From Candidatus Latescibacterota bacterium (GTDB lineage: Bacteria > Latescibacterota > UBA2968 > UBA8231), in the NCBI GenBank assembly GCA_965200315.1, contig OZ241362.1:3840001-3904000 (forward strand): a stretch of DNA of 64,000 nucleotides, given 5' to 3'. Of this stretch, positions 14,951 through 47,708 are shown in pieces; the first letter of the stretch is position 1; each line of letters starts with the position of its first letter. Under the pieces are notes generated by a model. The model saw only the letters and a list, made by a program, of their open reading frames with translations. It was not told the DNA's origin and made no database searches. The translations under genes and the position numbers were made by a program.

Positions 14951-15721
14951 ATGCGGATTTCGCGTCTCCTATTGGCCCTGCTACTCTCGGCACCCGTCGC
15001 CGCCGAAGAGGTCGTCGTGCCAGCCGGTCACTTCACCATGGGCATCGACCACCCGCGAGCCACCGACGAAAAGCCCAGCCGCCAAATCTATCTGAGCGCC
15101 TTTTCCATCGACCGCTACGAAGTCACCAACGCCCACTTCGCCGCCTTTGTCGCGGCCACCGGCTATCAGACGAAGGCGGAAAAACGCGGGGCTGAAAAGG
15201 CCGACGGCATTAGCTGGCGGCAGCCCCACGGCCCCGGTTCGGCAGCCGAGCCAACCCATCCGGTCGTCTATGTCAACTGGCAGGATGCCCACGCGTATTG
15301 CGCTTGGCGCGGCGGACGGCTGCCCACCGAAGCCGAGTGGGAAAAAAGTGCGCGCGGCAGCGACGGTCGCCTCTGGCCCTGGGGCACAAAGTTTGCGGCA
15401 GGACGCGCCAATCTCTGGGGCGCGGAAGACAGATACGAACAACTGGCACCAGTCGGCTCTTTTCCAGCAGGGGCCAGCCCATACGGCGCGCTCGACATGG
15501 CCGGCAACGTATGGGAGTGGTGCGCCGACTGGTACGACGCCAACTACTATGCCACCGGCCCGACCAAAGACCCGCAAGGGCCAGAGACGGGCCGCTTCAA
15601 GGTCTTGCGCGGCGGCTCGTGGATCAACCCAGCACCGGTCCTGCGCAGCATCAATCGCTTCGAGGTTTTGCCCGTAGAGCGCAGCCCCTATATCGGTTTC
15701 CGCTGCGCCCGCTCTCCATGA
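14951..15721 (+). CDS. exported formylglycine-generating-enzyme (SUMF1/FGE-sulfatase) domain protein
   Basis: Signal peptide; HPVV.V.W.DA.AYC.W, RLPTEAEWEK, DMAGNVWEW, RGGSW, GFRC. Confidence 0.9.
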   Translation: MRISRLLLALLLSAPVAAEEVVVPAGHFTMGIDHPRATDEKPSRQIYLSAFSIDRYEVTNAHFAAFVAATGYQTKAEKRGAEKADGISWRQPHGPGSAAEPTHPVVYVNWQDAHAYCAWRGGRLPTEAEWEKSARGSDGRLWPWGTKFAAGRANLWGAEDRYEQLAPVGSFPAGASPYGALDMAGNVWEWCADWYDANYYATGPTKDPQGPETGRFKVLRGGSWINPAPVLRSINRFEVLPVERSPYIGFRCARSP

Positions 15722-17358
15722 CCCTGCTTACCGCACTCTGCGTCGCGCTTCTGGCCGCGTGCGACGCGCCCCCACCAAACCTCACCTCCGTCCGCTTCAC
15801 CGACGTTACCGCAGCGTGCGGCTTGGATTTCCGCATGTACTCGGGCAGCCGAGTCAAAAACTACATCATTGAGGCCAAGGGCGGCGGTGGTGCCTTCCTC
15901 GACTACGACGGCGATGGCTGGCTCGACATCTACTTGGTCAACGGCTCGCGCCTCGAAGGCTATCCCAACCCGACCGCGGCCCCGACCAACGCCCTCTACC
16001 GCAACATGGGCGACGGCACCTTCACGAACCATACCCGCACAGCCGGGGTCGGCGATGCAGGTTGGGGCATGGGCTGCGCAGCGGCCGACTACGACGGGGA
16101 TGGAGACCTCGATCTCTACGTGACCAATTACGGCCCCAACATCCTCTATCGGAACGAAGGCAACGGCCGATTCCGCGACGTCGGCCCGGCCGCAGGCGTC
16201 GCCCTAGCAGGATGGAGCACGGGTGCCAGCTTCGGCGACTACGATGGCGATGGCGATCCAGACCTCTACGTGGCCCAGTACTTGCACTTTGCGCCCGAGC
16301 GCGTTCCGCCTCGCGGCGGGATGTGGAAGGGCGTTCTCGTGTTCGCCGGCCCGCTCGGCCTCCTTGGGGCGCAGGATGTCCTCTACCGCAACGAAGGCGA
16401 TGGCACCTTTCGCAATGTCACCCGCCAAGCTCACCTCGAGCAAGCAGAGCCGACCTACGGACTCGGTGCCCTTTTTTGCGACTACGACCAAGACGGCGAC
16501 CCAGACCTCTACGTGGCCAATGACTCGGCACCCAATTTTCTCTACCGCAACGAAGGCAACGGCCAATTCCGCGACGTCGGCGTGGAAGCCGGAGCCGCCC
16601 TCAGCGCCGAGGGAGGCGCACAGGCTGGCATGGGCATCGCCTATGGGGATTACGACCGCGACGGGTTTGGAGATTTTCTGGTGACTCATTTTGAGGACGA
16701 TTACAACACCCTCTATCGCAATCGCAGCGATGGGACCTTTGCCGTGGCTAGCGCCACCGTTGGCCTCGCCGAGCCGAGCCTGCCGCACTTATCCTTCGGC
16801 ACGTTCTTTTTCGATTACGACAACGATCAAGACCAAGACCTGTTTGTGGCCAACGGCCACGTCTATCCCCAGATCAGGCACCTTGCGCCCGATGGCTACG
16901 CCGAACCCAACCAACTCTTCGCCAATCAGGGCCCAACCGGCGCCTACCGCTTCTCAGAAGTCGCAGCCGGAGATGTGAGCCGCCCCGCCGTCAGCCGCGG
17001 TGCCGCCAAAGGGGACTACGACAACGATGGGGACGTAGATGTTTTGGTCTTCAACCTCGACGGTCCGCCGCAACTTTTGCGCAACGACGGCGGCAATCAG
17101 CGCAACTGGCTGAGCCTGCGCTTGGTCGGCGGTGGTCTAGGGGCGAAAGTCGCCAGCGCCAGCGGCGGGGTCGAGCAGGTCGCGGAGATCGTCAGCGGCG
17201 GCAGCTTCCTCTCGCACAGCGACGGGCGCGTCCACTTTGGTCTGGGCTCCAATCAGGCAGCCGATTGGCTCGAGATTCGCTGGCCCTCGGGTCGCGTCCA
17301 GCGCTTCGAGAACGTGGCCGCGAATCAGTTTTTAGTGGTGGAAGAGCCGAGGCGCTAG
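15718..17358 (+). CDS. CRTAC1-family (FG-GAP repeats + ASPIC/UnbV) lipoprotein
   Basis: Lipobox LAAC; repeated DYDGDG..DLY motifs; C-terminal HFGLG...WPSG. Confidence 0.9.
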   Translation: MTLLTALCVALLAACDAPPPNLTSVRFTDVTAACGLDFRMYSGSRVKNYIIEAKGGGGAFLDYDGDGWLDIYLVNGSRLEGYPNPTAAPTNALYRNMGDGTFTNHTRTAGVGDAGWGMGCAAADYDGDGDLDLYVTNYGPNILYRNEGNGRFRDVGPAAGVALAGWSTGASFGDYDGDGDPDLYVAQYLHFAPERVPPRGGMWKGVLVFAGPLGLLGAQDVLYRNEGDGTFRNVTRQAHLEQAEPTYGLGALFCDYDQDGDPDLYVANDSAPNFLYRNEGNGQFRDVGVEAGAALSAEGGAQAGMGIAYGDYDRDGFGDFLVTHFEDDYNTLYRNRSDGTFAVASATVGLAEPSLPHLSFGTFFFDYDNDQDQDLFVANGHVYPQIRHLAPDGYAEPNQLFANQGPTGAYRFSEVAAGDVSRPAVSRGAAKGDYDNDGDVDVLVFNLDGPPQLLRNDGGNQRNWLSLRLVGGGLGAKVASASGGVEQVAEIVSGGSFLSHSDGRVHFGLGSNQAADWLEIRWPSGRVQRFENVAANQFLVVEEPRR

Positions 17359-17363
17359 CGGTC

Positions 17364-19193
17364 TCATCGATCTCGCTCCAATCGCGCCAACTGTTGTCGT
17401 GCCTCGGCGTGATCGGGGTCGTGTTGCAAGGCGCTGGCAAAAGCGCCCCGAGCCTCGTCCGCTGAACCATGGCGCACCAACAGCAAGCCCTGCCTATAAA
17501 GAGCTTCCACGTCGCTGGGATCTAGCTCAACACACGCCTGCAAGCTGCGCCAAGCTGGGCGCGGCTGCCCCAATTGCAGATACGCCAGGCCGAGCAAATA
17601 GTAGCTGTCGCGGTGATCGGGGTCGCTGGCCAAGGCGCGCTGGCTGGCAATCACCGCGGCCTGCGGATCGCCAGCTTGGTACGCTACCTTGGCTAGGCCG
17701 TGATGCGCTCGCACGGAAGTAGAATCCGCGCCAAGCGCTTGGGCAAAGAAATGGCGCGCAGAGTCTGGCTGGCCGCTGGCTGCGTACGCCTCGCCTAATA
17801 GACAGTGAATCTCCAGATGACCTGGAGCCAGCGTGCGCGCGCGTTTGAGGACCGAGACGCCTTGGGAGAGTGCATCTTGATACAGATAGACCATGCCCAA
17901 GCGAATGTGCGCCAGTACGTGAGAGGAGTCAGCCGCCACCGCTTGGGCCAGCAGAGTAGCTGCGCGATCCCAAGAGCCGCGATTGGCATTGCGCAGCCCC
18001 TCTTTGTAGTGGCGATCGGCCGCACTTAGCCGCTGGAACTCGGCCGCGGCTGCCGCAGCTTGATCCGGCTGGCCCACCTGCGCGTATGCCAAGCTCAATA
18101 GATAACAGATGCTGTGATCGGCCGGATTTAACTGAAGAGCACGTTCCAAGGCAACGACTGCTTCGGGATGACGCTGCTCCTTGGTATAGACGCCGGCCAA
18201 ATCGACGAGGGCCGCTGCGTTCTTCGGCTCCAAGGCCAAGACCCTTTTAAGCCCGGTCTCAGCCGCAGCCAAATCGCCGCTGCGGGCGAGCAAGTCGCTA
18301 CGCCGGTACAAGGCTTTGGCATGGTCGGGTTGTAGTGTGAGCACCGCACCGTACGCGGTCAAAGCCCCCTCAAAGTCCGCCAAAGATCGACGTACCTCTC
18401 CGAGGCGAAAGTGGTAGTGGGGCTGGTCCGCACTCCGTTCAATGGCCCGCTGAAAACAAACTGCCGCGCCCTCGTACTGGTGCTGCATCTGCAAGGCGGT
18501 GCCTAATGAGTAGTGAAAGTCGGCCTTTTCCGGCGCTAGGGCTACGGCCCGTTCAAACGCGGATGCGGCCCGTTCGTTTTCATCCAAGCGGGCATGGGCC
18601 AACCCCATATAGAAGTGCGTCTGTGCGAGGTCTGGAGCATGCGCGGCCGCTCGTTCCAGCACGGCGAGGGCCTTGCGGTGGCGGCCTTGCTTGAGCAACG
18701 CTCCCCCGCGCTGACTCAACAGGCCCCCCCACTGCTGGCCCTTGTGCACCAGCAATGAATCTGGCAACGCCCGTTCCAGCGGATCGGGATAGACGCGCAC
18801 CTCGTGGCCGCGCCGTTCTCGCAAGCTCGCCAACAAAGCCCCGCGCTCGCCCTTCATTAGGGCGGCTGGGTACTGATTTTGGTAATAAGCGCGGATCTCT
18901 TCTGTGGCTAGCTCGGTGCTGTCCAAGCCCTGAGCACGGGCCTCCGCCAGCAATAAATAGCGATCTATGATGAGCTGGAGGTATTGGCGTCTAACCGCTG
19001 CCGCATCTTGGGCTCGGACTGCATCCAATAGGCTGAGGGCTTCGGCTGGAAGCTGTGCAACGTAAGTGCGCAACGCGTCGGCCTCAATCCGGTGCGGACC
19101 AAGCTCGGCGACGACGGGTGCGTCGGCCGGCTTACACGCTGGCAGCAGGCCGGCCCAAACGACCCACCACAGCGCACCCCTTCCCCAGTGCAT
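17364..19193 (-). CDS. TPR lipoprotein with SurA-like N-terminal remnant
   Basis: Lipobox-like LPAC; the first ~130 aa resemble both termini of PPIase 33027-34691; many TPRs follow. Confidence 0.8.
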   Translation of the reverse strand: MHWGRGALWWVVWAGLLPACKPADAPVVAELGPHRIEADALRTYVAQLPAEALSLLDAVRAQDAAAVRRQYLQLIIDRYLLLAEARAQGLDSTELATEEIRAYYQNQYPAALMKGERGALLASLRERRGHEVRVYPDPLERALPDSLLVHKGQQWGGLLSQRGGALLKQGRHRKALAVLERAAAHAPDLAQTHFYMGLAHARLDENERAASAFERAVALAPEKADFHYSLGTALQMQHQYEGAAVCFQRAIERSADQPHYHFRLGEVRRSLADFEGALTAYGAVLTLQPDHAKALYRRSDLLARSGDLAAAETGLKRVLALEPKNAAALVDLAGVYTKEQRHPEAVVALERALQLNPADHSICYLLSLAYAQVGQPDQAAAAAAEFQRLSAADRHYKEGLRNANRGSWDRAATLLAQAVAADSSHVLAHIRLGMVYLYQDALSQGVSVLKRARTLAPGHLEIHCLLGEAYAASGQPDSARHFFAQALGADSTSVRAHHGLAKVAYQAGDPQAAVIASQRALASDPDHRDSYYLLGLAYLQLGQPRPAWRSLQACVELDPSDVEALYRQGLLLVRHGSADEARGAFASALQHDPDHAEARQQLARLERDR

Positions 19194-19198
19194 CTGAA

Positions 19199-21331
19199 TC
19201 AATAGACGAGCGAGATAGTGCCGACCCGGCTCGCGGTCTCTGCGTCCGTATCCAGTGAGATGCGGTAGATATAGTGGCCCGGAGGCACCGGCTGACCCGC
19301 ATCGTCGCGGCCATCCCACACGGGCACGGCTGCACCGCGGTCGAACAAGCCTCGAATCGCGCTTAGGTGCTTTAGCCGGCGCACCGGACGGCCAGCCAGA
19401 TCGTAGATGCCAACAATCAGATCGCGCTGCACCGACACATCGTGTAACTGAAAACGAAATTCGGCCGCGTCGTTGAGGCCATCGCCGTTGGGGGTAAATG
19501 GATTGGGCGCGACGCGAACTTGCGCGAGTGGATTCGCGCCCAATTCGTCGGTGCGCACCCCAAGGGAATTGCCCGGAAAGTCGATGTTTGCGTCCCCGGG
19601 GGCAATGAGTTGTTTGACGCCGTCGCTCTCGCTGTCGAAGACCCAGCCTTGGAATTGGGTTCCATAGCGCACCACGTGGGTAGCGAACTCTACCTCAATG
19701 AGCTTGAACGTGTCGCTCGTGCCCGCCAGCTTGGGCAGGGCCACGACGATGCGGTCGTCGAGAATTTCGACCGGAAAGTCGCTGCCCAAGGCGACGCCAT
19801 CAACGCGCACGGCATGCACGGCCTCGGCGCGGGTCAGCGTGAAAATTTCCAGCCGATCAAAGCCCGTGTCGCTCGGATCAAAGGTTGGGCGCACGCTATA
19901 AGTGAAGTCCGTGCTCTCGCTGCGCGAGACGTCCTGAGGCCAGATCTCCCCGACGACCTCTAAAGCGGCTGGCGGTGCGAACTGAATCTCCAACTCGCGC
20001 AGCGCACCGGCTTGGTACAGGCTCGATAAGAAGATGACCTGAATTTGCAAATAGCGCTCGGGGCCGGGCGAGAGAATGGGAGTGCCGTCCACCCACGCTG
20101 ACACCTCTGCGGTAGAATCGCGCTGACCGGCCGTCAGCGCGTAGGGAGCCGACCAGAAACTCCAGTTTTCTTCGTCGAGGGTCGTAAAGCGCACGGACAA
20201 ATCGGCGCGTTCAAACTCCTTGCGGATTAGCTGCGTCGGCTCGCCTTCTATGTTGCTCGGCACCCAGTACAAATTGGGGTCTGGATCGCGGCCCGAGCGA
20301 GTGCGAATAATCACACTAGACCCCTCCTCAAACGCGCCGTCCCAGCGGATCTTGCCCCACGCCATGGGCGTACCAAAGTCGAGCACGGCCGTGGTGTACA
20401 CGGCGCGTTCGACAAAGCCCTCGCCGAAGATCTCGAGTTCGGCGATTTCCCAGTTTTCAATCGGGTTGAGCGGGCGCACAGCCACCCACTGGAATTGCTG
20501 GGTTGGGAAGCGGACATCGACGATTGGGTCCAAATTTTCGGTTTCCCTGCTCAGCGTAATCAGCCGCGGGTCGTTGGGCGGGTCCACGCGACGGCTGCTT
20601 ATCCGGGTGAACCAGCGGTTCGAGGGAGTGCTCAGATAGCAGTGAGAAGCAAAGTTGTTGAAGCTGTTGGCCGCCGAGACCTCGTACCACGGCAGAAAGT
20701 TCTCGGTAAAATCCTCCTCGGCCAAGTTTTCCTTGGCCAAGCGCGGCTCTCCCATCACCTCGAGCAGTTCGTCGATTTTGGGGTTGGCAGTGCCCAGCCG
20801 CGGGTAGAAGCGGATCCGATTGATAGGATAGTTGACGCCTAGTTCGACAATCGAATTCTGGACGTACAACCGACTCTGGATCCCGCTGCTTTCGCTGGTG
20901 CTGACGTTGAAAAACGCCGCCGTGTTGGGATCGCCATCGAACATGGGCGCAACCTGCACCAATTGGGTGGAGATGTCGCTGCAGCTCCCGCTGGTGGTGA
21001 TGTTGTTGGAAATGCCGCGGGCAATGCGCGTGCGGACATCGGGATGCGCTAAGTTCAAGTCTGGCGGCACGAAAAACGGGCGCATCCACTGCCCATTGTC
21101 CGCATCGACGATCTCGTTGAGCGTGTCTTCCCAAGTGGCGTACTCGATATTAGAAGCCACCGGTCGCATCTCGAGCGGCAGGCCCGCAGAATCGAGCACT
21201 GCGTAGTGGCCCGGCTCAAAAGACAGAGCCGTCGTCCAAGCATTACCGTCCTCGCCGCCGAGTTTGTACGCGTTGAAAGCAAGGGCCGGCGGGACAACCA
21301 GTGCGCCGAGCAAAAGACCAACAAAGAGCAT
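19199..21331 (-). CDS. large exported protein, paralog 1, with C-terminal FlgD-Ig/CHU_C-like domain
   Basis: Signal peptide; NPFTPNGDG.ND, IYDLAGR.V, WDGRD..G..VPPG.Y. Confidence 0.82.
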   Translation of the reverse strand: MLFVGLLLGALVVPPALAFNAYKLGGEDGNAWTTALSFEPGHYAVLDSAGLPLEMRPVASNIEYATWEDTLNEIVDADNGQWMRPFFVPPDLNLAHPDVRTRIARGISNNITTSGSCSDISTQLVQVAPMFDGDPNTAAFFNVSTSESSGIQSRLYVQNSIVELGVNYPINRIRFYPRLGTANPKIDELLEVMGEPRLAKENLAEEDFTENFLPWYEVSAANSFNNFASHCYLSTPSNRWFTRISSRRVDPPNDPRLITLSRETENLDPIVDVRFPTQQFQWVAVRPLNPIENWEIAELEIFGEGFVERAVYTTAVLDFGTPMAWGKIRWDGAFEEGSSVIIRTRSGRDPDPNLYWVPSNIEGEPTQLIRKEFERADLSVRFTTLDEENWSFWSAPYALTAGQRDSTAEVSAWVDGTPILSPGPERYLQIQVIFLSSLYQAGALRELEIQFAPPAALEVVGEIWPQDVSRSESTDFTYSVRPTFDPSDTGFDRLEIFTLTRAEAVHAVRVDGVALGSDFPVEILDDRIVVALPKLAGTSDTFKLIEVEFATHVVRYGTQFQGWVFDSESDGVKQLIAPGDANIDFPGNSLGVRTDELGANPLAQVRVAPNPFTPNGDGLNDAAEFRFQLHDVSVQRDLIVGIYDLAGRPVRRLKHLSAIRGLFDRGAAVPVWDGRDDAGQPVPPGHYIYRISLDTDAETASRVGTISLVY

Positions 21332-21455
21332 ATCCCGACCTCGACAACTTTTAAGGGGTGGGGGGCGTGAGTGCAACATACTAAAAAAAAACTCGCTATG
21401 CACTCTTTTGGCTAGGGTCTATATTAGCATGTCCATCTCTAATAGTCAGGTTTTT

Positions 21456-24134: not shown

Positions 24135-24158
24135 GGGAACCGGCGAATGGGATAGAAT

Positions 24159-24362
24159 ATGCCTACGGTCCCCCATCGCTTTCACTTTCTATCAAGTGAT
24201 CGAACCGAACCACCGCACGTTCATGTGAAGCGAGATAATGGATTTGCCAAGTTCTGGCTGAACCCTGTACAATTGCAAAAAAGCGACAACTTTACCGCAA
24301 GGGAACGTCGCATCATTCACAGGATGGTTGAACAAAATCAAGCAGCATTTCTGGAGGCTTAG
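24159..24362 (+). pseudogene. degenerate DUF4160 toxin
   Basis: EPPHVHV.R....AKFWL.P; shortened N-terminus and early stop (FLEA*). Confidence 0.7.
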
Positions 24363-24363
24363 T

Positions 24364-24798
24364 GTGACTACTTCGATGATTGAATTAGAAGTGCCCGATG
24401 CAAAGAGCATTGCGGTTACAGAAGCTAAACTCACCGTCGAGCTTGCAGACGGTCGCATGATCTCCGTTCCGCTAGCTTGGTACCCGCGGCTCGTCCACGC
24501 GACACCAGCCGAACGCAACAATTGGGAGTTGATCGCTGCGAACCGCCACATCCACTCGGAAGATTTGGACGAGGACATTAGCGTGGAAGGGCTGCTGGCG
24601 GGCCGTCGCTCCGGGGAGAGCGAGGCTTCGTTCAAACGCTGGCTCGAAGCGAACGGGACGGGGCGTCGCGCTCTACGAACTCGGACGTGCCAAACGCTAG
24701 CGCCCACTTCCCCTCAACTGCCCTTCCCACTGCTCTCTAAGCTGCTCAAAAATCTCCGCCGAGCGTCCCTCTCGGTAGTACTCTGTAAACTGCTCTAA
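24364..24798 (+). CDS. DUF2442 antitoxin; apparently lost its stop and runs into the convergent gene
   Basis: LADGR.ISVPLAWYPRL..AT..ER.NWE, LDEDISVEGLLAG..SGES..SF.RWL. Confidence 0.8.
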   Translation: MTTSMIELEVPDAKSIAVTEAKLTVELADGRMISVPLAWYPRLVHATPAERNNWELIAANRHIHSEDLDEDISVEGLLAGRRSGESEASFKRWLEANGTGRRALRTRTCQTLAPTSPQLPFPLLSKLLKNLRRASLSVVLCKLL

Positions 24799-26898: not shown

Positions 26899-26902
26899 CT
26901 CG

Positions 26903-29611: not shown

Positions 29612-29790
29612 ACTAGGCTCCTTGTCTGCGAATCTGTAGGCTGAGGAGTTTGGGAGAAGTCAACAACCTTAAACCCGTGCTCCTGCTCTCTCTGTCGCAA
29701 CGCTATCGCCAAGCGATCAAGATCATATTCAAATTGCCGAGCCAGTGCGTCTTTTGCTTTCCATACGTCTTCGATTATTTCATCTTTCAT
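29608..29790 (-). CDS. small putative antitoxin (PIN-toxin partner type)
   Basis: DEIIEDVWKAKDALARQFEYDLD.L...L; directly follows a PIN remnant. Confidence 0.65.
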   Translation of the reverse strand: MKDEIIEDVWKAKDALARQFEYDLDRLAIALRQREQEHGFKVVDFSQTPQPTDSQTRSLV

Positions 29791-30050
29791 CTAACCGTCT
29801 CCCATGAGTTCTTGCGAAGTGCAGATCTCTGGATAGTAATGACTATACAGCATACAAAGTTCACGGATACTTGGTTTGAAGTTCCAAGTCATAAGATAAT
29901 CGCTCCGATGAACAGCAGAGCGCGCAATATGAAGCGCATCATCTATTGCTTTTTCCGCTAAAGGGCCTTCGTTTATCATTCTGCGAGCTAACCCAACCGC
30001 AGAATCTGTTGTTGCGAGTATAGGTATTCCCTCAAGGAAGTTTCGTCGCC
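29791..30050 (-). pseudogene. PIN/VapC-like toxin remnant
   Basis: DALHIA.S......YL.TWNFK....PEICT..EL C-terminal motifs; N-terminal half disrupted; start boundary approximate. Confidence 0.7.
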
Positions 30051-30146
30051 GAATCTAATCCTTTGCTTTAATTCAGCGGCCGCTGAAGGTAGACAGCATC
30101 TGGACCATCACGAAACGCGGGATTTTAAGAGGCTTTCATAAAAATA

Positions 30147-30175
30147 AGGCGATGGGCTTGACTAGCCCATCGCCT
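30147..30175 (-). terminator. intrinsic terminator after the 30214 gene
   Basis: AGGCGATGGGCT-5nt-AGCCCATCGCCT followed by TATTTTT on the minus strand. Confidence 0.8.
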
Positions 30176-30213
30176 GTAAATCTAAACCGAATGCCGGGTC
30201 GAGCCAGCAGGAC

Positions 30214-31119
30214 CTAGCGATTAAACTCGGTCTTGATGCGGCCCCAAGTGCTGGATTCAACGGCTGTGGAAGAAGCGGCTCCCCAGTCAATGGCGTCGTC
30301 GAGCTCGCTCATGACCATGTCGTTGTCCGCGCGGCAGCATTTGTTGGGCGAAGTTGACCAAAAACCTTGGTAGTCTTCAAGTACAGAGCCGCCTTCAATG
30401 TCGAAGTCGCCGAAGGTCCAGCTAATGGCGATGATCTGGCCTTCTTCGAGGTCGGTCTCCTCAGCAGCGTCCCGGTCGCCATCGTCGGGAATGAAGTCAA
30501 AGGGCCGGATCCAAGCCTCGTATAAATACGTGCTCTCGCCGAACTCTTCCCCTTCAAACGTGTACGCGAATTTCCAAGCATCGTTGTTGTCTGGATCGAG
30601 GACCCAATCAAACGGGGGATTGTAACCGCCCCACGCGCCAGCCGTCGGCGGCATGGACCAGTTGTATCCCACCTTGAGGATGCCGCCTTCTTGGCCGGGG
30701 GCATAGCCACCGCCGCCCTCAACCTCGGGGTGGGTCGGCGACACATAGACTTCCCAAGCGTCGTCGGACCACCAAGCATTCGGCTCTTCAGCGTCGCGGG
30801 TGTGGACGTTATCGAACACTTCGGCCATGAAATAGAGCAAGTTGGTGTTGTCGTTCCAGCCGACAATCTGCCGTACGCTCAGGTCGCTTACGTCGATCTC
30901 ACCGCGCGCCTTGCTGTACACCGAATCCGAGTACTTGTCGTTGCCGACTTCGTAGGGAATCTGAGGCACAGCAGCCCAATCGGCGTGATTACCGTCAATG
31001 ACCGGTATGTTTTCATCTGGGAACTGCACGGCGAACAGGAGTTCGCCAGGCGGAAAGTGAGCCAGAGCCGGTAGCGCAACCACCGCGGCGAGTAAGGCAC
31101 TTACTAACATTTGGCGCAT
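30214..31119 (-). CDS. exported acidic CBM9/DOMON-like protein with C-terminal TAVE..TWG.IK motif
   Basis: AAGGAG RBS; signal peptide; PVIDG...DW, W.....LY...V.DN, DD.WE; ends STAVESSTWGRIKTEFNR. Confidence 0.72.
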   Translation of the reverse strand: MRQMLVSALLAAVVALPALAHFPPGELLFAVQFPDENIPVIDGNHADWAAVPQIPYEVGNDKYSDSVYSKARGEIDVSDLSVRQIVGWNDNTNLLYFMAEVFDNVHTRDAEEPNAWWSDDAWEVYVSPTHPEVEGGGGYAPGQEGGILKVGYNWSMPPTAGAWGGYNPPFDWVLDPDNNDAWKFAYTFEGEEFGESTYLYEAWIRPFDFIPDDGDRDAAEETDLEEGQIIAISWTFGDFDIEGGSVLEDYQGFWSTSPNKCCRADNDMVMSELDDAIDWGAASSTAVESSTWGRIKTEFNR

Positions 31120-31235
31120 CTCTATCTCCTTGTGAAAGAGGGCATAAGAAAACGAGCTCTTGGGCATAGCAAGGCTCAAGATACTTCCAACAACATTGAA
31201 AGTCAATATCCTTGCGCCGTTGGGGGCCGCGATTC

Positions 31236-32978: not shown

Positions 32979-33026
32979 GACGGCATTTCCTTAAACAAAT
33001 GTTTCTTTGTATAATGCAAAGTAATT

Positions 33027-34691
33027 ATGAACATTCTAAGCAGAAATTTTTTGCGGCGCAGATGCGCCTCGGCGTGGGCGGTGCTGGCCCTGTCGGTCGC
33101 GTGCAGCCAGCAAAACGAGCCGCCAGTAGCCCTAGTCGGCGATGTGCCCATCACGGGCGCTGAGTTGCGCCAATTTGCATTAAACGTGCTGCCGGGGCTG
33201 CGTCCGGCCCAACAGGGACCAGCCGCGCGGCAGGACTATTTGCAAACCTTGATTGACCGTCAGCTCATGCTGCGTCAAGCGCACGAAATGGGGCTAGACC
33301 GCGAACCAGCCGTGTGGGTCGAGCAGCTACTTCAGCGGCGCACCTATCTGGCGAACCTGTACCGCAAGCGCGACCTGCATCCCCAAGCGCAAGTTACAGA
33401 CGCGGACATTGACCGCTTTTTCGCCGAACACGATCTCGGGCGCGAGCGTCTCCTGACGGCCATTCTGGTCCAGACCAAGGCCGAAGCACAAGCGATCCAG
33501 CGTCAACTCGCAGCCGGTGCTTCCTTTGAAGAACTGTCTGCCCAGCACACGCTCGACCCGCGTGCGGCCGCTCAGCGCGGTCGGATCGGTTTTATCAATC
33601 GCTCCATGGCCAGCCACCTTGGGGTGCCAGAAGTCGTATTCGATCACCAACCGACCGGCGTCGTATCCGAGCCGTTGCCCTTGGGCCGGCGATTTCACTT
33701 GGTGCGCTTTATAGAGGATCGCCAAGTAGAGGTCGATAGCCAGCGAGACTTGCTCGCCCGCGAGCTAGCCAAAGCCAAGAGGCGGGAGGTGGAAAAAAAG
33801 CAGGTCGAGCTCCTCGCCTATGAATTGGGCTGGCATTTGACCCCACAGGGCCTAGCCGCCCTGCCATCGCGCGCCAATGCACCCCTGTTCTCATACGCCA
33901 GAGGACAAGTCTCCACCGAAGAATATCTAGAAGTTATTAAGAGGCATCGGGTAACGCGCCCAGAGGCGCTGCAAGACAGCGCGACCATTGCGGCCTTTGC
34001 GCGCCGCACCATCCTGCCAGAGCTCGTTTTAGCCGACGCGGCCGAAAAGGCGGGCTATCACCAAGAGTTAGAGGCCGCAGCACATTTAGCCCAAGCCGCC
34101 GAAGAGTTGCTGCTCAAAGCCGCGTATCAACGCCAAGTAAGCGACTCTGTCACTGTAGCCACAGCCGATGTAGAGCGCTATATCACAGCGCATCCCGAGC
34201 AATTCACCATCCCGGAGTCCATCTGTTTTGACGAGTTGATCGCGCCCAGCCTACAAGAGGCCCGCCAGCTCAAAGACACCTTGACCGGCCAAGAGGATTT
34301 GGCCGCCCTAGCCAAGGCTCGCGGCTTCCCGCTGCGGCCGCGCCGCGCCGATGGCCTCGTCTGCATGCACCGCTACAACAGCGTCCCGTACCCCCAACTC
34401 TGGCCTGCCTTGCAACAGGCCGAGATCGGCGTCCTAAACGGCCCAGTGCGAACTCGCGAGGGATTTGCCTTATTCGTGGTGATCCGCATTGAGCCCGCTC
34501 ACCCAGAGTCGCCACAGCAGTCCGAGCAACGGGCGCGGGCGGCCCTCGTGCAGCAAGCTGAACAAGTGCGCTTTGACCAATGGATTGCGTTGCTGCGAAA
34601 AAAATACCGCGACGAAATCGACATATCCGCCGAGCAACTCGCCGTTGCCCTGCCCGATTCGCTGTTGGCTAGCCTAATACAGCGCGAGTAA
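33027..34691 (+). CDS. SurA/PrsA-like lipoprotein with two parvulin-type PPIase domains
   Basis: Lipobox SVAC; ILV.T..EA.....L..G.SFEEL, G.IG, VSEP, GPVRT..GF..F; the first parvulin domain is clearer than the second. Confidence 0.82.
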   Translation: MNILSRNFLRRRCASAWAVLALSVACSQQNEPPVALVGDVPITGAELRQFALNVLPGLRPAQQGPAARQDYLQTLIDRQLMLRQAHEMGLDREPAVWVEQLLQRRTYLANLYRKRDLHPQAQVTDADIDRFFAEHDLGRERLLTAILVQTKAEAQAIQRQLAAGASFEELSAQHTLDPRAAAQRGRIGFINRSMASHLGVPEVVFDHQPTGVVSEPLPLGRRFHLVRFIEDRQVEVDSQRDLLARELAKAKRREVEKKQVELLAYELGWHLTPQGLAALPSRANAPLFSYARGQVSTEEYLEVIKRHRVTRPEALQDSATIAAFARRTILPELVLADAAEKAGYHQELEAAAHLAQAAEELLLKAAYQRQVSDSVTVATADVERYITAHPEQFTIPESICFDELIAPSLQEARQLKDTLTGQEDLAALAKARGFPLRPRRADGLVCMHRYNSVPYPQLWPALQQAEIGVLNGPVRTREGFALFVVIRIEPAHPESPQQSEQRARAALVQQAEQVRFDQWIALLRKKYRDEIDISAEQLAVALPDSLLASLIQRE

Positions 34692-34710
34692 AACCTTGGA
34701 GCAAATTCAA

Positions 34711-37700
34711 ATGACCATCCAACGCATACCCCTAAGCTGGGGCCTGCCGTTGCTCCTTTTCTTGAGCCATGCGGGAGCACAAGAGGGGTTTGAGCTAACC
34801 GCCGATGGCGTGACCATAAATCGCGCCGCGCAATGGGAACACTGGACGCAGCCCAAACACGCCGTACACATCGACCTCCAAACCCACGCCCTCACTCCGC
34901 GCCGCATCGACCAAGCGACCAATGCCATCCTAGACATCGAGCACTTCCAGACCCTGATCGGCGACCAGAAGGCATACGACAAGATAGTCAAGGAATTAAA
35001 CCGCGCCGACCGCCCCGTACCACTCAACATCCGCACGGCGCCAGCCACGGTGGCCGGAGTGCCGATCGTCTATCTAAAGGCCAACACAAAAAAGAACATT
35101 GAGGTCGGCGATCCGATCATCTGGTACTACTATCACGGTGGCATCCGCCACGCTGGCACCAGCGTCGAAACCGCCGCCGCCATTCTCGACGCTGATCCCA
35201 CGACCTATTGGGAACCCAGCACCTTGGTCTCCCGCGCCGAGTACGACGATCTCGCGCCGGCCGCTAAAGGGCCTATCTACTATGTTGTCAAAGGCGACGA
35301 TGGCCTAGAGCAGCGGGTAGATGAGGCCACCTATGACGCCGCCCCGGGCGATCGCCGCGTCGAATACCACAACCACTCGCTCGAAAATTGGACTGTTGAT
35401 ATCGACCTCGGCCGGCTGGTCCCCGTCGCCAAGGTGGTGCTGCGCTTCCTAGATCCCAGCGAAGGCGAGCCTTTCCGCCAAGTGCGCTTGCTCGGAACGC
35501 CTTCGGATGCGCGGAATGCGGCTTTGTCGCTCATAGACCGCACTATTGCTCCCGTCGAAAACGAAACCGCGGTGGAGTTCAACCTCGACCCGGACGACGC
35601 GGGTATTTACCAGCAACTCCACATCCTCCGCATCGCAGTCACAGACAGCAAGCTAGACAAGTTCGCGGTCGTGCCGGAAGCCGAGTTTGCGGCCCTGCCG
35701 CTCAACGAACAGGGCGGCATTGACTACTACATAGTCAACGCGGCCGGGACCGAGACCAAGGTCGCCCGCAGCATATACGAGGACGTCGCTCCCGAGCGCC
35801 GCGGTCGCCTCGTTCACTACCGCCGCGAGCGGCCCCGCCTAGCGGCTGTAGAAGTGTGGAGCCAAGGCGACAACATCGCCCTCGACATTATCAATGGCGG
35901 CGGTAGCGTCGAGCTGACCGGCACCTTCGGCGGCCTGCCCGGGTTCGACGGCCGCTACGAGAGTAACTTCCTCCAATTCGTCTGGTCGCCCGACCCTCGC
36001 TTTGAAGACCGCGGTATTATGATCCTCGACCTTGGGGCGCGCTTCTGGCTCAATTACTTCCGCATGGTCGGCAGCATCAGCGGAGTCGATGAAATGGTCG
36101 TCCGCATCTCCGACGGCACCCGGGATTCCAACGGCAGCCTAAAGTGGAGCGAGATGCACCGCCAAAACGGCGGCACCGTGGAGAGCGAGTTTGAACAGCT
36201 AGAGCAAGTGCGCTATCTCACCAGCCAGATATACACCAGCCAAGCGGGTCGCGCTGGCGGATACAACGCCGGCGACCGCATCCGCGAGGTGCAGCTATTC
36301 GGCGCGGGCTATCCCTCTGAGGTCACGCTCACCTCGCCGATGATTGAGCTGCCCGGCTCAATCATTCTCGGCCGCATTGAGTGGGAGGCCGATCTGCCGG
36401 ATTCAGCCCTAGTCGATGTACAAATCCGAACGCGCACCGGCGACCGCCTCGTGGAAACCGTCGAGTACTTCGGCAACGGCGGCGATCCCAAAACTGAAAC
36501 CGACTACAACAACCTGCCGACTAGTTTTAAGGGGCCGGTCGTGAATCGACTACAGCCCGGCGGCGGCTGGAGCAGTTGGAGCCAGCGCTATACGCGCCCG
36601 GGCCAGCTTGTGACCTCCCCCAGCCCGCGCCGCTTCTTGCAACTCCAAGCGCGGCTGCTCTCCACCTCGCCCGAGGTGGCGGCGAGCCTGCGCTCCATTG
36701 CCGTGGAATTCCTGCCTCCAATAGCCCAGCGGACTGTCGCCGAAATTTGGCCCAATACAGTCGAGCCGCGGGCAATGGGCGAGTTCGCGCTTTACCTCAA
36801 ACCCACCTTTGTGGAGCACCAGCCCGAAGGACCGCCCAGCCGGCGCTTTGACGAGATTTGGCTGGACGCCGCGCCGATAGAGACGCTTTCCATCGTCGAC
36901 GTAGCACTCGGCCGGGAGGAGGATTTTGCTCGAGGCCAACCCCGCCATCTCTTTTCCGCCTCTGACGCAGACGTGCTGATCAATGCGGCCACGGGCGATT
37001 CCCTGAAGGTCTTCCCGGCGGACACCGGCTCCGGCCTGCGGTTGCTCCTCCCCGAAAAGGTGGCCTTGCAGGCCGCCGGCGACGACACCCGCACCTATTA
37101 TCGGGTCGTAACAGAGGAGGGCGAGCAGGTGCCCGTAGATGGCGATGGCCGCATACTCAACGAGCTAACCTATCTCGGTCTGCCGCCCGAGGCGCAGGGC
37201 GACCTCCTCTACTTCGCCCTGCGCGGCCACGACGCGGATGGCAACCCCATTACCGAAACCGTAGAGGAGTTCGCATACCGGAGCTTGGCCGATTCGCTCC
37301 AAGGCGAGATTCGCTACTTTCGTCGGTTGATAGGTAAAGGCGGGGAATTCCCTTTTGACCAACAGGGGAACCCATTGACCCAAGCCGCGTACAACGCCCT
37401 GCCCCGGAGCCAGCGGGGCTCCATCGCCGCAGCCGGCGAACTGGTAAGGGTGCGCTTTCACGCCTCGGTGCTGCTCAACGGCACCACAATAGATGCCGCA
37501 ATCCGCGATTCGGCTTTTCCCGCTATCTACCAGCAAGTCGATCCAGGCGACGCCACGCCCCTGACACCCGGCACCGCCCTGAGCATCTCCGTGCCCTTGT
37601 CCAACCGCGTCGTACAGGGCGTCGCCATTGTGCCGAATCCTTTTACCCCAAATGGAGACGGCACCAACGATCAAGCCCACATACGCTTTGCACTCGGCAA

Positions 37701-37929
37701 TCTCAATGCCGAGCGCACCATCGAGGTGCGCATCTTCGACTTGGCTGGACATCCCGTGTGGAGCGGGCATCGGCAGAGCTTTGGTGAGCAGGTATTCACT
37801 TGGGACGGACGTGGCAACGACGGGCAACTCGTGCCGCCGGGGACGTATCTCTGCAAGATAGACGCCGACGTAGATGCAGCTTCTGCGTCCCATACGAGTG
37901 AGACGCATTTGATCGGGGTGGCGTACTGA
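34711..37929 (+). CDS. large exported protein, paralog 3, with internal repeats and C-terminal FlgD-Ig/CHU_C-like domain
   Basis: Signal peptide; IRTRTGD, WS.WS..Y, SPSPRRFLQ, EIWP, NPFTPNGDG.ND, WDGR...G..VPPG.Y. Confidence 0.82.
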   Translation: MTIQRIPLSWGLPLLLFLSHAGAQEGFELTADGVTINRAAQWEHWTQPKHAVHIDLQTHALTPRRIDQATNAILDIEHFQTLIGDQKAYDKIVKELNRADRPVPLNIRTAPATVAGVPIVYLKANTKKNIEVGDPIIWYYYHGGIRHAGTSVETAAAILDADPTTYWEPSTLVSRAEYDDLAPAAKGPIYYVVKGDDGLEQRVDEATYDAAPGDRRVEYHNHSLENWTVDIDLGRLVPVAKVVLRFLDPSEGEPFRQVRLLGTPSDARNAALSLIDRTIAPVENETAVEFNLDPDDAGIYQQLHILRIAVTDSKLDKFAVVPEAEFAALPLNEQGGIDYYIVNAAGTETKVARSIYEDVAPERRGRLVHYRRERPRLAAVEVWSQGDNIALDIINGGGSVELTGTFGGLPGFDGRYESNFLQFVWSPDPRFEDRGIMILDLGARFWLNYFRMVGSISGVDEMVVRISDGTRDSNGSLKWSEMHRQNGGTVESEFEQLEQVRYLTSQIYTSQAGRAGGYNAGDRIREVQLFGAGYPSEVTLTSPMIELPGSIILGRIEWEADLPDSALVDVQIRTRTGDRLVETVEYFGNGGDPKTETDYNNLPTSFKGPVVNRLQPGGGWSSWSQRYTRPGQLVTSPSPRRFLQLQARLLSTSPEVAASLRSIAVEFLPPIAQRTVAEIWPNTVEPRAMGEFALYLKPTFVEHQPEGPPSRRFDEIWLDAAPIETLSIVDVALGREEDFARGQPRHLFSASDADVLINAATGDSLKVFPADTGSGLRLLLPEKVALQAAGDDTRTYYRVVTEEGEQVPVDGDGRILNELTYLGLPPEAQGDLLYFALRGHDADGNPITETVEEFAYRSLADSLQGEIRYFRRLIGKGGEFPFDQQGNPLTQAAYNALPRSQRGSIAAAGELVRVRFHASVLLNGTTIDAAIRDSAFPAIYQQVDPGDATPLTPGTALSISVPLSNRVVQGVAIVPNPFTPNGDGTNDQAHIRFALGNLNAERTIEVRIFDLAGHPVWSGHRQSFGEQVFTWDGRGNDGQLVPPGTYLCKIDADVDAASASHTSETHLIGVAY

Positions 37930-37993
37930 TAGCACCACTCCCATTCATTATAGATGTCTTCATGAAGCCATCCCCCGACCTTCACCCCATCCC

Positions 37994-39946
37994 TTGAGCG
38001 CGATTTCACCAACGGCACAGCGGCCCGGCCTCCGTGCCCTCCTCGTCGGCGCAGCCGGTGCTGGGGCTATTGGTGCCGGCGTTCCGTATTGCAACATGGT
38101 GCTCCACGGCTCCCGGATCGCCTCGTACTTCAATACGCCGGCCGCCATTATCCTCTTCTTCCTGCTCGTCTTTGTCGTCAACACCCTGTTGGGCTTGGCT
38201 CGCCGCTCGTGGATGTTCAATCGAGCCGAACTGGCCCTGATCTACATCATGTGGATCGTCGCCACTGCCATCCCCGAATGGGGTCTGACCGCCTTCTTGC
38301 TACCCGATATCACCAGCCTGATCTACTATGCCACCCCCGAGAACAACTGGAACGAACTAGTCCTGCCTTATGTGCCGGACTGGATAATTCCGCACCACGA
38401 TTTCACCCGCATCCAACACTTCTACGAAGGGGCTCCCCAAGGCCAAGCTATACCTTGGAATTTGTGGCTCCGGCCGCTGGCCTACTGGTTGCCCTTTATT
38501 TTGGCGCTCTATCTGGCCATGATCACCTCCATGGTCATTCTGCGCCGTCAATGGGTTGAGCGCGAGCGCCTGATTTTCCCTTTGGTGCAGGTGCCGCTGT
38601 CCATGCTCCAAGGGGATGAAGACAGCCGCTCGCTGCTCAAGCCCTTCTTCCGCAATCCACTCATGTGGGTCGGCTTTGCCCTGCCGGCCATCCTGCAAAG
38701 CCTCAACGGTCTCAACCACTATTTCCCCTTTGTACCCACAATCAGTCTCGACGCCTCGGTATCCCTTTTCCGCGACACCATCCACATTCCGTTGCGCATT
38801 AGTTTCCAAATGATCGGATTCTCCTATTTCGTCAACCCCGATATCGCCTTTGGCCTGTGTTTCTTCTATCTGCTCAATACCGTGCAGCAGGGCCTTTTCA
38901 ACGTCTTGGGCTTCCAGACCATAGACCCTGTCCTCGGCGTGTACAGCGCCTATACCGGCTCCATTGTCGTGCATCAAGGCTTTGGTGCCATTCTAGTGCT
39001 GGTGCTCTTTGGTCTGTGGACTGCCCGGGGGCACTTGAAGGCCGTCGTCGGCAAAGCCTTGGGCCTCAACCCCAAAGTCGACGACGGAGATGAGATTCTC
39101 TCCTACCGGACCGCCTTCTTCCTGTTGTTGGGCAGCCTTGCATTCATGGGCGTCTGGCTGTGGAAATCGGGGCTACCGGCCTGGATCACGCCGATCTACC
39201 TGCTCTTGGTTTTCTTACTATTCATCGGCATCACCCGGGTGGTCGCCGAAGGGGGGCTCGCCTTTATCTTCGCGCCCATGATCGCCTCGGATTTCGTCGC
39301 GGCCGGTTTTGGCACCCGCGCCTTAGGCCCCACTGGCACCGTCGCCTTGGCCTTCACCTATGTCTGGGCCTCGGACATTCTCACCTTTGTCATGGCCTCT
39401 TGCGCCAACGGCCTCAGGCTGGTCGAAGAGACCATCTCCAAAGGCCGTCGGCTGGTCTTTTGGGCCATGCTAGTGGCTATTGTCGCGACCCTGGGGGCGT
39501 CGATCTGGGCTATCATCGACTTGGCCTACCGCTACGGCGGCATCAATACCGACCAGTTCTTTTTTGGCGGAGCCGCCCGCTATCCCTTTGACAATGCGGC
39601 CGCCCGCATTGCCGCTCCCACGGGTCCCAATTGGGCCAACTGGGGCTACACGGGAATTGGTGCCGGGTTTATGGGGTTACTCATGCTGGCGCGGCAGCGA
39701 TTTTTATGGTGGCCTTTCCATCCCTTGGGCTTTCCCATCAGCGCTGTTTTCGGCACCATGTTCTTCAGCGTCTTTTTGGCTTGGTTGCTCAAGACCGTAG
39801 TGATGAAATACGGCGGGCCCCGGCTCTATCTAAAGACCAAGCCCTTCTTTCTCGGTCTGATCCTCGGCCAATTCGTCACCGCCGGCCTCTGGTACGCCAT
39901 CGACCACTTGGCCGGCGAGAGCGGCAACGCGGTTATGATTTGGTAG
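37994..39946 (+). CDS. polytopic membrane protein, DUF6785/DUF6784 family (putative transporter)
   Basis: Many TM helices; RRQW...ERL.FPL, RVVAEGG, WWPFHPLG, YGG..LY....PFFLG.I.G. Confidence 0.72.
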   Translation: MSAISPTAQRPGLRALLVGAAGAGAIGAGVPYCNMVLHGSRIASYFNTPAAIILFFLLVFVVNTLLGLARRSWMFNRAELALIYIMWIVATAIPEWGLTAFLLPDITSLIYYATPENNWNELVLPYVPDWIIPHHDFTRIQHFYEGAPQGQAIPWNLWLRPLAYWLPFILALYLAMITSMVILRRQWVERERLIFPLVQVPLSMLQGDEDSRSLLKPFFRNPLMWVGFALPAILQSLNGLNHYFPFVPTISLDASVSLFRDTIHIPLRISFQMIGFSYFVNPDIAFGLCFFYLLNTVQQGLFNVLGFQTIDPVLGVYSAYTGSIVVHQGFGAILVLVLFGLWTARGHLKAVVGKALGLNPKVDDGDEILSYRTAFFLLLGSLAFMGVWLWKSGLPAWITPIYLLLVFLLFIGITRVVAEGGLAFIFAPMIASDFVAAGFGTRALGPTGTVALAFTYVWASDILTFVMASCANGLRLVEETISKGRRLVFWAMLVAIVATLGASIWAIIDLAYRYGGINTDQFFFGGAARYPFDNAAARIAAPTGPNWANWGYTGIGAGFMGLLMLARQRFLWWPFHPLGFPISAVFGTMFFSVFLAWLLKTVVMKYGGPRLYLKTKPFFLGLILGQFVTAGLWYAIDHLAGESGNAVMIW

Positions 39947-44155: not shown

Positions 44156-44159
44156 TCTC

Positions 44160-47707: not shown

Positions 47708-47708
47708 C

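Follow-up and report, generated by a model that had tools for sequence, protein, structure and literature searches.

A multi-copy envelope cassette of Candidatus Latescibacterota encoding a large predicted outer-membrane barrel, CHU_C-tailed surface proteins and a SurA-like lipoprotein

The genome of a Candidatus Latescibacterota bacterium, assembled as a single contig of 5.36 Mb (assembly GCA_965200315.1, contig OZ241362.1), carries a recurring set of genes for envelope proteins. One copy lies at positions 14951–39946 of a stretch of 64,000 nucleotides (contig positions 3,840,001 to 3,904,000), referred to here as the window. The core of the cassette consists of a predicted outer-membrane beta-barrel of ~900 aa, two to three discoidin-type proteins with a CHU_C/FlgD_ig domain at the C terminus (the tailed proteins), and a SurA-like lipoprotein with two parvulin domains. 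The locus is one of about 30 paralogous cassettes in the genome, and the region is best explained as one copy of a multi-copy envelope module that is specific to Latescibacterota. This article describes the genes of the locus, their multiplicity and distribution, and the roles that the cassette might play at the cell surface.

Gene content and organization

Genes were called from six-frame open reading frames (ORFs) together with Pfam and NCBIfam scans of the locus proteins (15 proteins). All of the genes named in the original prediction for this region were confirmed, as were its very tight junctions (Table 1). The stop of the barrel gene lies 4 nt from the start of the 733-aa GT-C gene, the stop of the peptidyl-prolyl isomerase (PPIase) gene lies 4 nt from the start of the 1077-aa gene (P13), and the stop of the 710-aa gene (P5) lies 5 nt from the start of the TPR lipoprotein gene. 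The true start of the CRTAC1-like gene, whose product has the lipobox LLAAC, is an ATG that overlaps the FGE stop.

Table 1. Features of the cassette and its edges, in window coordinates
Feature	Position	Strand	Evidence
FGE-sulfatase-domain exported protein, 256 aa	14951..15721	+	Pfam PF03781, E 2.1e-69
CRTAC1-like FG-GAP/UnbV_ASPIC lipoprotein, 546 aa	15718..17358	+	FG-GAP_3 E 1e-57; UnbV_ASPIC E 3e-21
TPR lipoprotein with SurA_N-like N-terminal domain, 609 aa	17364..19193	-	TPR families; lipobox LLPAC
Tailed surface protein P5, 710 aa	19199..21331	-	CHU_C 31.7 bits, cut-off 27
Tailed surface protein P6, 892 aa	21456..24134	+	FlgD_ig 36.2 bits; CHU_C 27.7 bits
GT-C glycosyltransferase (PMT_2) with C-terminal TPR, 733 aa	24697..26898	-	PMT_2 32.5 bits, cut-off 26.1
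Predicted outer-membrane beta-barrel B902, 902 aa	26903..29611	-	no family match; AlphaFold2 model
Terminator-like hairpin, 12-bp stem, T-rich tail	30147..30175	-	consensus scan
Exported CBM9-like protein C365, 301 aa	30214..31119	-	CBM9_1 21.1 bits, under cut-off 23.4
Second GT-C (PMT_2) with TPR, 580 aa	31236..32978	-	PMT_2 39.0 bits, cut-off 26.1
SurA-like double-parvulin PPIase lipoprotein, 554 aa	33027..34691	+	Rotamase_2 57.1 bits; Rotamase 47.2 bits
Tailed surface protein P13, 1077 aa	34696..37929	+	CHU_C 42.8 bits, cut-off 27
DUF6785 + DUF6784 polytopic membrane protein	37994..39946	+	Pfam E 2.5e-129

The likely transcription units are the 580-aa GT-C gene with C365, the barrel with the 733-aa GT-C gene, PPIase–P13–DUF6785, P5 with the TPR lipoprotein, P6, and FGE with the CRTAC1-like gene. 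The hairpin, a strong one, follows the 301-aa gene and sets C365 apart from the barrel/GT-C unit; it is a hint only, given that the consensus promoter/terminator scan found no more sites in total than it did in shuffles. A 171-aa ORF at 24192–24707 was dismissed as spurious, having no family match, no paralogue and an odd composition.

Multiplicity, synteny and distribution of the cassette

BLAST searches with the locus proteins as queries, run on the complete set of 16,159 six-frame ORFs (at least 90 aa), show that the genome encodes 43 barrels, 106–109 tailed proteins (108 with P5 as the query), 41 DUF6785 proteins, 27 PPIases, 19 proteins of the C365 type (15–19 over different counts), 43 CRTAC1-like proteins (36–43) and 10 FGE proteins, the count being 1 for both the DUF4175 protein immediately downstream and the 171-aa ORF. 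CHU_C matches occur at 107 places, and the best 30 barrel paralogues are 37–57% identical over their full length. Three or more family members come together in 30 clusters, 26 of which include a barrel; in a recurrent arrangement, two or three tailed genes are followed by the barrel and then by the PPIase. Since the top matches of every component fall in the same five cassettes, the cassettes were duplicated as blocks.

Linkage was counted under stricter family definitions (38 full-length barrels, 100 tailed proteins and 26 PPIases). Within 10 kb, 36 of the 38 barrels have a tailed paralogue, against 8.3 at random, and 23 adjoin one directly; 26 have a PPIase (4.4 at random) and 14 a C365-type gene (2.5 at random). 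Conversely, a barrel is found within 10 kb of 78 of the 100 tailed paralogues and of 22 of the 26 PPIases. A one-genome-per-species scan provided a further 77 loci, nearly all from metagenome-assembled genomes titled Candidatus Latescibacterota, with a few from Gemmatimonadetes/-ota, one from Woeseia and one from Handelsmanbacteria. A tailed paralogue sits beside the barrel in every one of the 77, accompanied by a PPIase in 60, the 733-type GT-C in 67, C365 in 59, DUF6785 in 29 and FGE in none; P13 precedes the barrel in 44 and the barrel precedes the GT-C in 58. These figures come from the 80 best barrel matches, many of them from one genus, and so represent loci that are not independent and in which the window's own cassette sub-type is over-represented. 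The window's exact arrangement is kept in loci at 96–97% barrel identity, whereas at 77% barrel identity the PPIases are 45% and the tailed proteins 55–63% identical, which makes the barrel the most conserved part. Given the 36 of 38 linked barrels and the synteny in relatives, a random grouping of unrelated envelope genes was rejected as an explanation.

Across 168 genomes of the phylum, surveyed by family (f2–f13 and the window's own) and including related genomes that are not independent, the barrel profile was found in 107. It occurs in all 75 genomes of the window's family and in families f5–f13, and in 0 of the 56 genomes of families f2–f4. First-look candidates number about 11–90 per genome in the window's family and 1–22 in the other barrel-bearing families. 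CHU_C matches at E 1e-6 or better occur in 101 of the 168 genomes, again in 0 of the 56 of f2–f4, with a per-family pattern almost identical to that of the barrel, which indicates that the barrel and the tailed proteins belong together. No description of the cassette was found in the searched literature on Latescibacter (with sponge, T9SS, FlgD, discoidin and PUL), nor did a term search of the main texts of PMC12993501 and PMC4454575 return any mention of it; the latter assumes non-specific porins.

The original prediction thus fared well in proposing a coherent, conserved envelope module whose genes co-occur and co-localize, as borne out by the linked barrels and by the syntenic loci in relatives. 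Its single system of ~25 kb gives way to one of about 30 paralogous cassettes, and several of its proposed parts prove to be peripheral. The FGE and CRTAC1-like genes, which it counted as components, are members of other multi-copy families that are loosely linked to the cassette: FGE has 10 copies in the genome and is absent from the 77 related loci, and 16 of the 38 barrels have a CRTAC1-like gene within 10 kb (5.3 at random). The general glycosylation step that it envisaged is at odds with the presence of a 733-type GT-C gene within 10 kb of just 12 of the 38 barrels (1.8 at random). DUF6785, also assigned to the system, is found in 56 of the 56 genomes of the three barrel-less families and in 0 of the 13 genomes of one barrel-bearing family.

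The large outer-membrane barrel

The 902-aa protein (B902) has a signal peptide and matches no Pfam and no NCBIfam family at E 0.01. An AlphaFold2 model computed from a 37-paralogue alignment (pLDDT 78, pTM 0.78) contains about 24–26 long antiparallel strands, an inserted domain at approximately residues 250–400 and a poorly ordered acidic stretch at approximately residues 500–620. The most conserved Asp/Asn-rich columns of the family sit in this acidic loop (~residues 528–620), which may bind calcium. Fold matches (Foldseek, VIA-align) are exclusively to outer-membrane barrels. The top matches include MtrB (6r2q_B; E 4e-11), Deinococcus SlpA (Z 13.4, 423 aligned, root-mean-square deviation (rmsd) 8.5), the usher FimD (Z 12.4, 304 aligned, rmsd 4.9), LptD, porins and SprA (Z 10.7). 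TM-scores are 0.16–0.35 and sequence identities 6–12%, with many unrelated barrels at Z 11–13. B902 is predicted to be a generic large outer-membrane barrel outside known families, in line with the original view of it as a membrane barrel.

The Pfam scan gave no Plug or TonB_dep_Rec match in the barrel, the 15 Plug matches of the genome lying elsewhere, and Pfam and NCBIfam gave no usher, POTRA or Slam (DUF560) match. A whole-genome search with TIGR03519 (PorP/SprF) found nothing, the control genomes being silent everywhere too, and the barrel profile retrieved nothing usable from Protein Data Bank (PDB) sequences. Among 1.84 billion representative proteins, 742 relatives were found at E 1e-3 and 211 at E 1e-30; the family is therefore rare and lineage-restricted. 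A complex prediction that paired barrel residues 21–902 with the last 113 residues of P13 gave a score of 0.00 and a mark of 0.32, which is evidence in neither direction.

In a distant family of Latescibacterota, barrel homologues of ~1000 aa with 20–28% identity occur as tandem pairs (L140, L143 and L145 in genomes G011, G015 and G022). The conserved gene string there runs CHU_C-tailed protein, small FadL/PorV-like barrel, two big barrels, ~1100-aa TPR protein, DUF5683, ExbB, ExbD and DUF4159. The ExbB/ExbD string was present at three of six loci; these three are probably orthologous and so amount to one observation, which hints at energy coupling.

The tailed surface proteins

P5, P6 and P13 are mutually homologous, with a middle region and the C-terminal domain in common; P6 and P5, for example, are 30% identical over 448 aa. 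P5 consists of a signal peptide, a beta-rich body and the C-terminal CHU_C/FlgD_ig domain, the export signals of tailed proteins being N-terminal hydrophobic leaders read from the sequence. The CHU_C matches (Pfam PF13585) end 6–20 residues before the last residue, and the same stretch also matches FlgD_ig. The Atlas clusters nearest to P5 are CHU_C/FlgD_ig hypotheticals, some with F5_F8_type_C (discoidin) domains. That domain occurs in 18 of 20 aligned relatives of P13, the window's own P13 falling short of E 0.01, and, in a wider comparison, in 11 of 12 P13-type as against 2 of 26 P5/P6-type proteins. P13 is the type usually placed directly upstream of the barrel. Domain scans found no catalytic domain in the tailed proteins, and the 710-aa and 1077-aa proteins gave weak FlgD matches only among PDB sequences. 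Based on these domain matches, the bodies of the tailed proteins appear to be lectin-like, of discoidin/CBM type.

Folding helper, glycosyltransferases and accessory genes

Both parvulin domains of the PPIase lipoprotein (lipobox LSVAC) score above their cut-offs, and SurA_N_3 reaches 21.9 bits, under its cut-off of 27.2. The first ~110 aa of the TPR lipoprotein are homologous to the N terminus of the PPIase (37% identity over 109 aa, E 3e-8), and so the term 'derived' is apt for this protein. In both GT-C proteins, a PMT_2 match above cut-off is followed by TPR repeats; a crude scan counted 12 hydrophobic segments in the 733-aa protein and five in the 580-aa protein, and the latter also has a weak match to DUF1736 of TMTC proteins (16.9 bits, below cut-off). 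Like the FGE and CRTAC1-like genes, the GT-C/TPR genes are optional or loosely linked parts of the cassette.

The 301-aa C365 protein, whose CBM9 match is weak and which retrieved nothing usable from PDB sequences, ends in ...STWGRIKTEFNR, its C-terminal end also being given as ...TAVESSTWGRIKTEFNR. A tail of the form T-A-V-E-x-x-[ST]-W-G-x-[ILV]-K-[AS]-x-[FLY] is found at the end of 47 of the 16,159 six-frame ORFs, compared with ~5 expected from the density of the core motif: the C365 copy, at window positions 30214–30270, and 46 others. With WGx[IVLM]K alone required, T, V and E at −7, −5 and −4 are kept in 41, 38 and 36 of the 47. An N-terminal hydrophobic leader is present in 38 of the 47, and 22 of these 47 ORFs have a barrel no more than 10 kb away (6.3 at random). 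The TAVExxSWGxIK tail is a candidate for an unrecognized sorting or docking signal. Other cassettes contain a recurrent pair of unannotated genes for proteins of ~310–335 aa and ~240–265 aa, which either precede the tailed genes on their upstream side or follow the barrel. Four such pairs from the window's own genome are L125:3900-5643, L126:3773-5559, L127:96-1895 and L123:15394-17212, and in three of them (L123, L126 and L127) the first member bears the tail. C365-like proteins are therefore commoner than the BLAST counts suggest.

The DUF6785/DUF6784 membrane protein

The model of the DUF6785/DUF6784 protein (pLDDT 83.9, pTM 0.87) has barley YS1 (7wsr_A) as its sole strong fold match (E 1.1e-6, TMq 0.65, TMt 0.69, 682 columns, 13% identity), the next matches having E above 0.01 and TM below 0.2. 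At E 0.01, Pfam reported DUF6785 and DUF6784 only and no match to OPT (PF03169). In PDB searches, the single sequence found nothing usable and a profile of 20 relatives found no chain at E 10. The protein is predicted, from its model, to have an OPT/Yellow-Stripe importer fold without detectable sequence similarity to that family. The searched literature contained no mention of DUF6785.

DUF6785 occurs in 154 of the 168 genomes, including all 56 genomes of the barrel-less families f2–f4, and lies within 10 kb of 13 of the 38 barrels (5.2 at random). As its distribution departs from that of the barrel, DUF6785 is an independent, loosely attached uptake module that has expanded on its own. In two barrel-less genomes, six DUF6785 neighbourhoods contain peptidases of families M81, M55 and M20, an aminopeptidase, gamma-glutamyltranspeptidase, GFO/IDH/MocA and enolase-superfamily enzymes, heparinase II/III-like proteins, a sulfatase and an ABC binding protein, a setting that fits the role of an importer. 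Near DUF6785 in barrel-less genomes there are also pairs of genes for an unannotated protein of ~740–810 aa and a PorV-like small barrel (L115:1534-4714 and L118:14680-18528), which may represent a different outer-membrane module in the same place.

Secretion machinery

Away from the locus, the genome carries genes for SprA (622 bits against a cut-off of 200) and PorU (615 bits against 420), two type IX secretion system (T9SS) components, next to a PorV-like gene that, at 149.8 bits, falls below its cut-off of 250. As SprA and PorU score above their cut-offs, a T9SS route probably exists. In Bacteroidota, as set out in PMC9143113 and PMC12618676, type B cargo with a C-terminal domain (CTD) binds to and needs cognate PorP/SprF barrels, which are often genetically linked to it.

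Expression and habitat

Runs labelled sponge metagenome, one of which may be the source, contain all sampled words of a 10-kb stretch, and two metatranscriptome runs of one study contain 81% and 71% of them. Over 20 kb divided into 30 bins, contigs assembled from the RNA libraries cover every bin. The contig that spans the 301-aa gene reaches depths of 232 and 412 in the two RNA runs, compared with 5–18 for neighbouring contigs, these being depths of assembled contigs from a single study in which DNA carry-over is possible; in a run of unrecorded type, probably DNA, contig depth is flat at 12–27. These values hint that the 301-aa protein is abundant.

Genes around the cassette

Directly downstream of the cassette, at window positions 39999–48608, are genes for a single-copy DUF4175 protein (1098 aa), a TPR protein, a 459-aa ORF, a MoxR AAA_3 ATPase and a DUF58 protein, which probably form a separate MoxR-type cluster. 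The DUF4175 gene (39999–43295) was considered and rejected as a member of the cassette, being single-copy and grouped with the MoxR/DUF58 genes. Farther on, at 48733–62188, the suf genes are apparently interrupted. A SufB/D-type gene at 48733–50196 is followed by a Uma2-family gene, genes for a 1125-aa HEPN_Swt1 + DUF499 protein, a 300-aa ORF and a 936-aa DUF1156 protein, and, beyond that insert, an ABC ATPase, a second SufB/D-type gene and a class-V aminotransferase. This looks like a defence-type insertion within an operon. Upstream in the window are an IS1595-type transposase (65–991) and a lone N6/N4 DNA methylase (6554–7642), in a stretch where GC drops to about 0.50–0.53.

Proposed role and alternative explanations

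The reading that we tentatively favour, as plausible though somewhat short of probable, is that the cassettes encode cargo-plus-anchor surface complexes for ligand capture in the manner of polysaccharide utilisation loci (PULs), by analogy with T9SS type B cargo and its PorP/SprF barrels. In such a scheme, the tailed proteins of 710, 892 and 1077 aa would leave the cytoplasm by Sec and would be kept competent in the periplasm, as might the barrel, by the SurA-like parvulin lipoprotein of the cassette and its TPR-bearing relative. In the window's cassette sub-type, the GT-C/TPR enzymes may O-glycosylate them. The CHU_C/FlgD_ig domain would carry the tailed proteins through the SprA translocon encoded elsewhere and would then retain them on the cognate 902-aa barrel, much as PorP/SprF does in Bacteroidota. 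The outcome would be a surface complex, lectin-like (discoidin/CBM-type) in nature, with affinity for a particular glycan or glycoprotein, about 30 diverged cassettes giving about 30 specificities in the way that PULs do in Bacteroidota. The OPT-fold DUF6785 permeases, often found at cassette edges, could bring small products across the inner membrane. Through its many cassettes, the cell would thus probably be able to present a large variety of complexes that capture food molecules.

A number of observations weigh against the cargo-plus-anchor reading. The NCBIfam model for type B tails, TIGR04131, scores 22.4, 20.9 and 25.6 bits in the tailed proteins against a cut-off of 35. The barrel has no sequence match to PorP/SprF in Pfam or NCBIfam and is about three times their size. 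Of the T9SS models searched in the genome, SprA and PorU alone score above cut-off, which leaves a full T9SS putative: models of GldL, GldM and GldN found nothing, the control genomes being equally silent, and the GldK search gave only FGE-domain matches of at most 68 bits against a cut-off of 350. There is no polymer-cutting enzyme inside the window's cassette, and the 49 ORFs left unassigned in 12 other cassette regions yielded neither a glycoside hydrolase nor a protease, only flanking enolase-superfamily, sulfatase, amidohydrolase, and ABC and SSF transporter genes. A minority of the barrels in the genome have a GT-C gene nearby; DUF6785 comes within 10 kb of a barrel in 14 of 38 cases, in a second count, and in family f10 it is found in 0 of 13 genomes, the barrel being in 13 of 13. 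Finally, both structural models rest on shallow paralogue alignments (37 rows for the barrel and 20 rows for DUF6785), and the character of the RNA evidence described above likewise calls for caution.

Some of the same features would suit a barrel that takes molecules up, a TonB-less analogue of SusC with the tailed and CBM9-like proteins as its SusD/E/F-like partners and DUF6785 as the inner-membrane importer. The PUL-like amplification to about 30 cassettes, the lectin-like surface proteins, the OPT-fold importer at many cassette edges, the catabolic and transporter genes that flank some cassettes, the mere 15 Plug-domain receptors of the genome as against 43 barrels, and the distant homologues strung with ExbB/ExbD (3/6 loci, probably one orthologous locus) all point this way. 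However, the barrel has no Plug or TonB-dependent receptor match, a scan of 12 cassette regions of the genome showed no energy coupling, barrel and DUF6785 fail to co-occur across families, and a plugless barrel of ~24–26 strands would be a very large open pore. Overall, such an uptake channel appears unlikely. Of the uptake alternative that the original prediction offered, the DUF6785 part gains from the importer fold, and the proposed tie between DUF6785 and the barrel is lost. It is similarly improbable that the barrel is an export or assembly pore for the tailed proteins that works independently of T9SS, with the parvulin lipoprotein as its chaperone, along chaperone-usher, two-partner or Slam-like lines. 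That a chaperone gene of its own, a large barrel and several exported subunits paralogous to one another recur as a set invites this idea, as do the fold match to the FimD usher (Z 12.4, 304 aligned, rmsd 4.9) and the failure to detect the GldKLMN motor and ring (the controls for GldL, M and N being silent). Yet the barrel has no match to usher, POTRA or Slam (DUF560) families, its fold matches are generic (TM ≤ 0.35, with unrelated barrels at Z 11–13), the folded subunits of 650–1100 aa are unlike pilins, and SprA and PorU would already provide a T9SS route. Translocation of the tailed proteins by the barrel, as first proposed, is not supported by these data, SprA and PorU being encoded elsewhere.

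A role outside nutrition, in which the cassettes are alternative sets of surface coats or adhesins for interactions with host or phage in a sponge habitat, is quite unlikely. It would account for the massive expansion in the window's family (about 11–90 candidates per genome versus 1–22), for the presence of the stretch in sponge-metagenome-labelled runs, for accessory genes that diverge faster than the barrel (77% for the barrel, 45% for the PPIase and 55–63% for the tailed proteins), and for the apparently very high representation of one cassette gene in RNA libraries. It fits less well with the lack of any visible switching machinery (invertases, repeats) and with RNA contigs that span the whole window cassette, the only cassette mapped, rather than one expressed copy; the discoidin/CBM-like domains and neighbouring importers suit nutrient capture at least equally.

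A bolder form of the cargo-plus-anchor idea, which is possible but doubtful, would posit a hitherto unrecognized class of outer-membrane machine, in which a giant barrel from a new family, served by a SurA-like chaperone of its own, would dock, export or channel for sets of CTD-tagged lectins, partly or wholly independently of the T9SS motor and with dozens of specificities in each genome, as the phylum's counterpart of the Sus-type PUL. If the preferred reading is true, more than one-tenth of the genome (about 30 cassettes, most of ~10–35 kb, in 5.36 Mb) would serve a single uncharacterized surface system, which would be a main key to the feeding or attachment of Latescibacterota, an uncultured and widespread phylum. 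The principle of pairing CTD cargo with a cognate barrel, as in type IX secretion, would reach beyond Bacteroidota by way of a new barrel family, a large unannotated protein family would acquire a testable role, and the unstudied DUF6785 family would represent OPT-fold importers in degradative contexts.

Comparison with known systems

Among the accessory proteins, the two GT-Cs of the window resemble PMT/TMTC O-mannosyltransferases in that PMT_2, above cut-off, is followed by TPR, one of them with a weak DUF1736 match. As a point of difference, these GT-C genes accompany only some cassettes. The DUF6785/DUF6784 protein shares its whole-chain fold with the OPT/Yellow-Stripe transporter HvYS1 (PDB 7wsr/7wst; TM 0.65/0.69), although at 13% identity and with no Pfam OPT match at E 0.01. 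The best fold matches of the barrel, MtrB (6r2q_B), LptD, the FimD usher and SlpA, are barrels of similar size, but TM-scores of 0.16–0.35 and identities of 6–12% reveal no family-level relation. With respect to the FimD/PapC ushers in particular, the match to FimD is no better than those to porins or other barrels, and Pfam finds no usher domain.

The PULs of Bacteroidota combine SusC/SusD with surface glycan-binding proteins. The present cassettes are like PULs in that an outer-membrane barrel and lectin-like surface proteins form a unit that has been amplified many times, often near importers or catabolic genes. They are unlike PULs in that no SusC (Plug/TonB-dependent) or SusD homologue is among the 15 locus proteins, no glycoside hydrolase or regulator was seen in the scanned cassettes, and the surface proteins have CTD tails instead of lipid anchors.

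The T9SS type B/PorP–SprF pairs (SprB–SprF and PG1035–PorP) share with the cassettes secreted proteins that have a CHU_C-type domain at the extreme C terminus and are encoded beside an outer-membrane barrel, numerous pairs of cargo and barrel in a single genome, and the occurrence of SprA and PorU. The 23 of 38 barrels that directly adjoin a tailed paralogue speak for PorP/SprF-like working, not for membership of that family. Differences lie in the tails, which fall under the TIGR04131 cut-off, in the GldKLMN components, undetected here with silent controls for GldL, M and N, and in the barrel itself, which has ~900 aa, ~24–26 predicted strands, an acidic loop and no PorP/SprF (TIGR03519/PF11751) match. 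Lastly, each barrel here comes with two or three cargo genes and with a SurA-like chaperone of its own, unlike PorP/SprF systems, and the genome has 43 barrels and about 100 cargo genes, as compared with the 12 type B substrates of F. johnsoniae that are given in PMC12618676.

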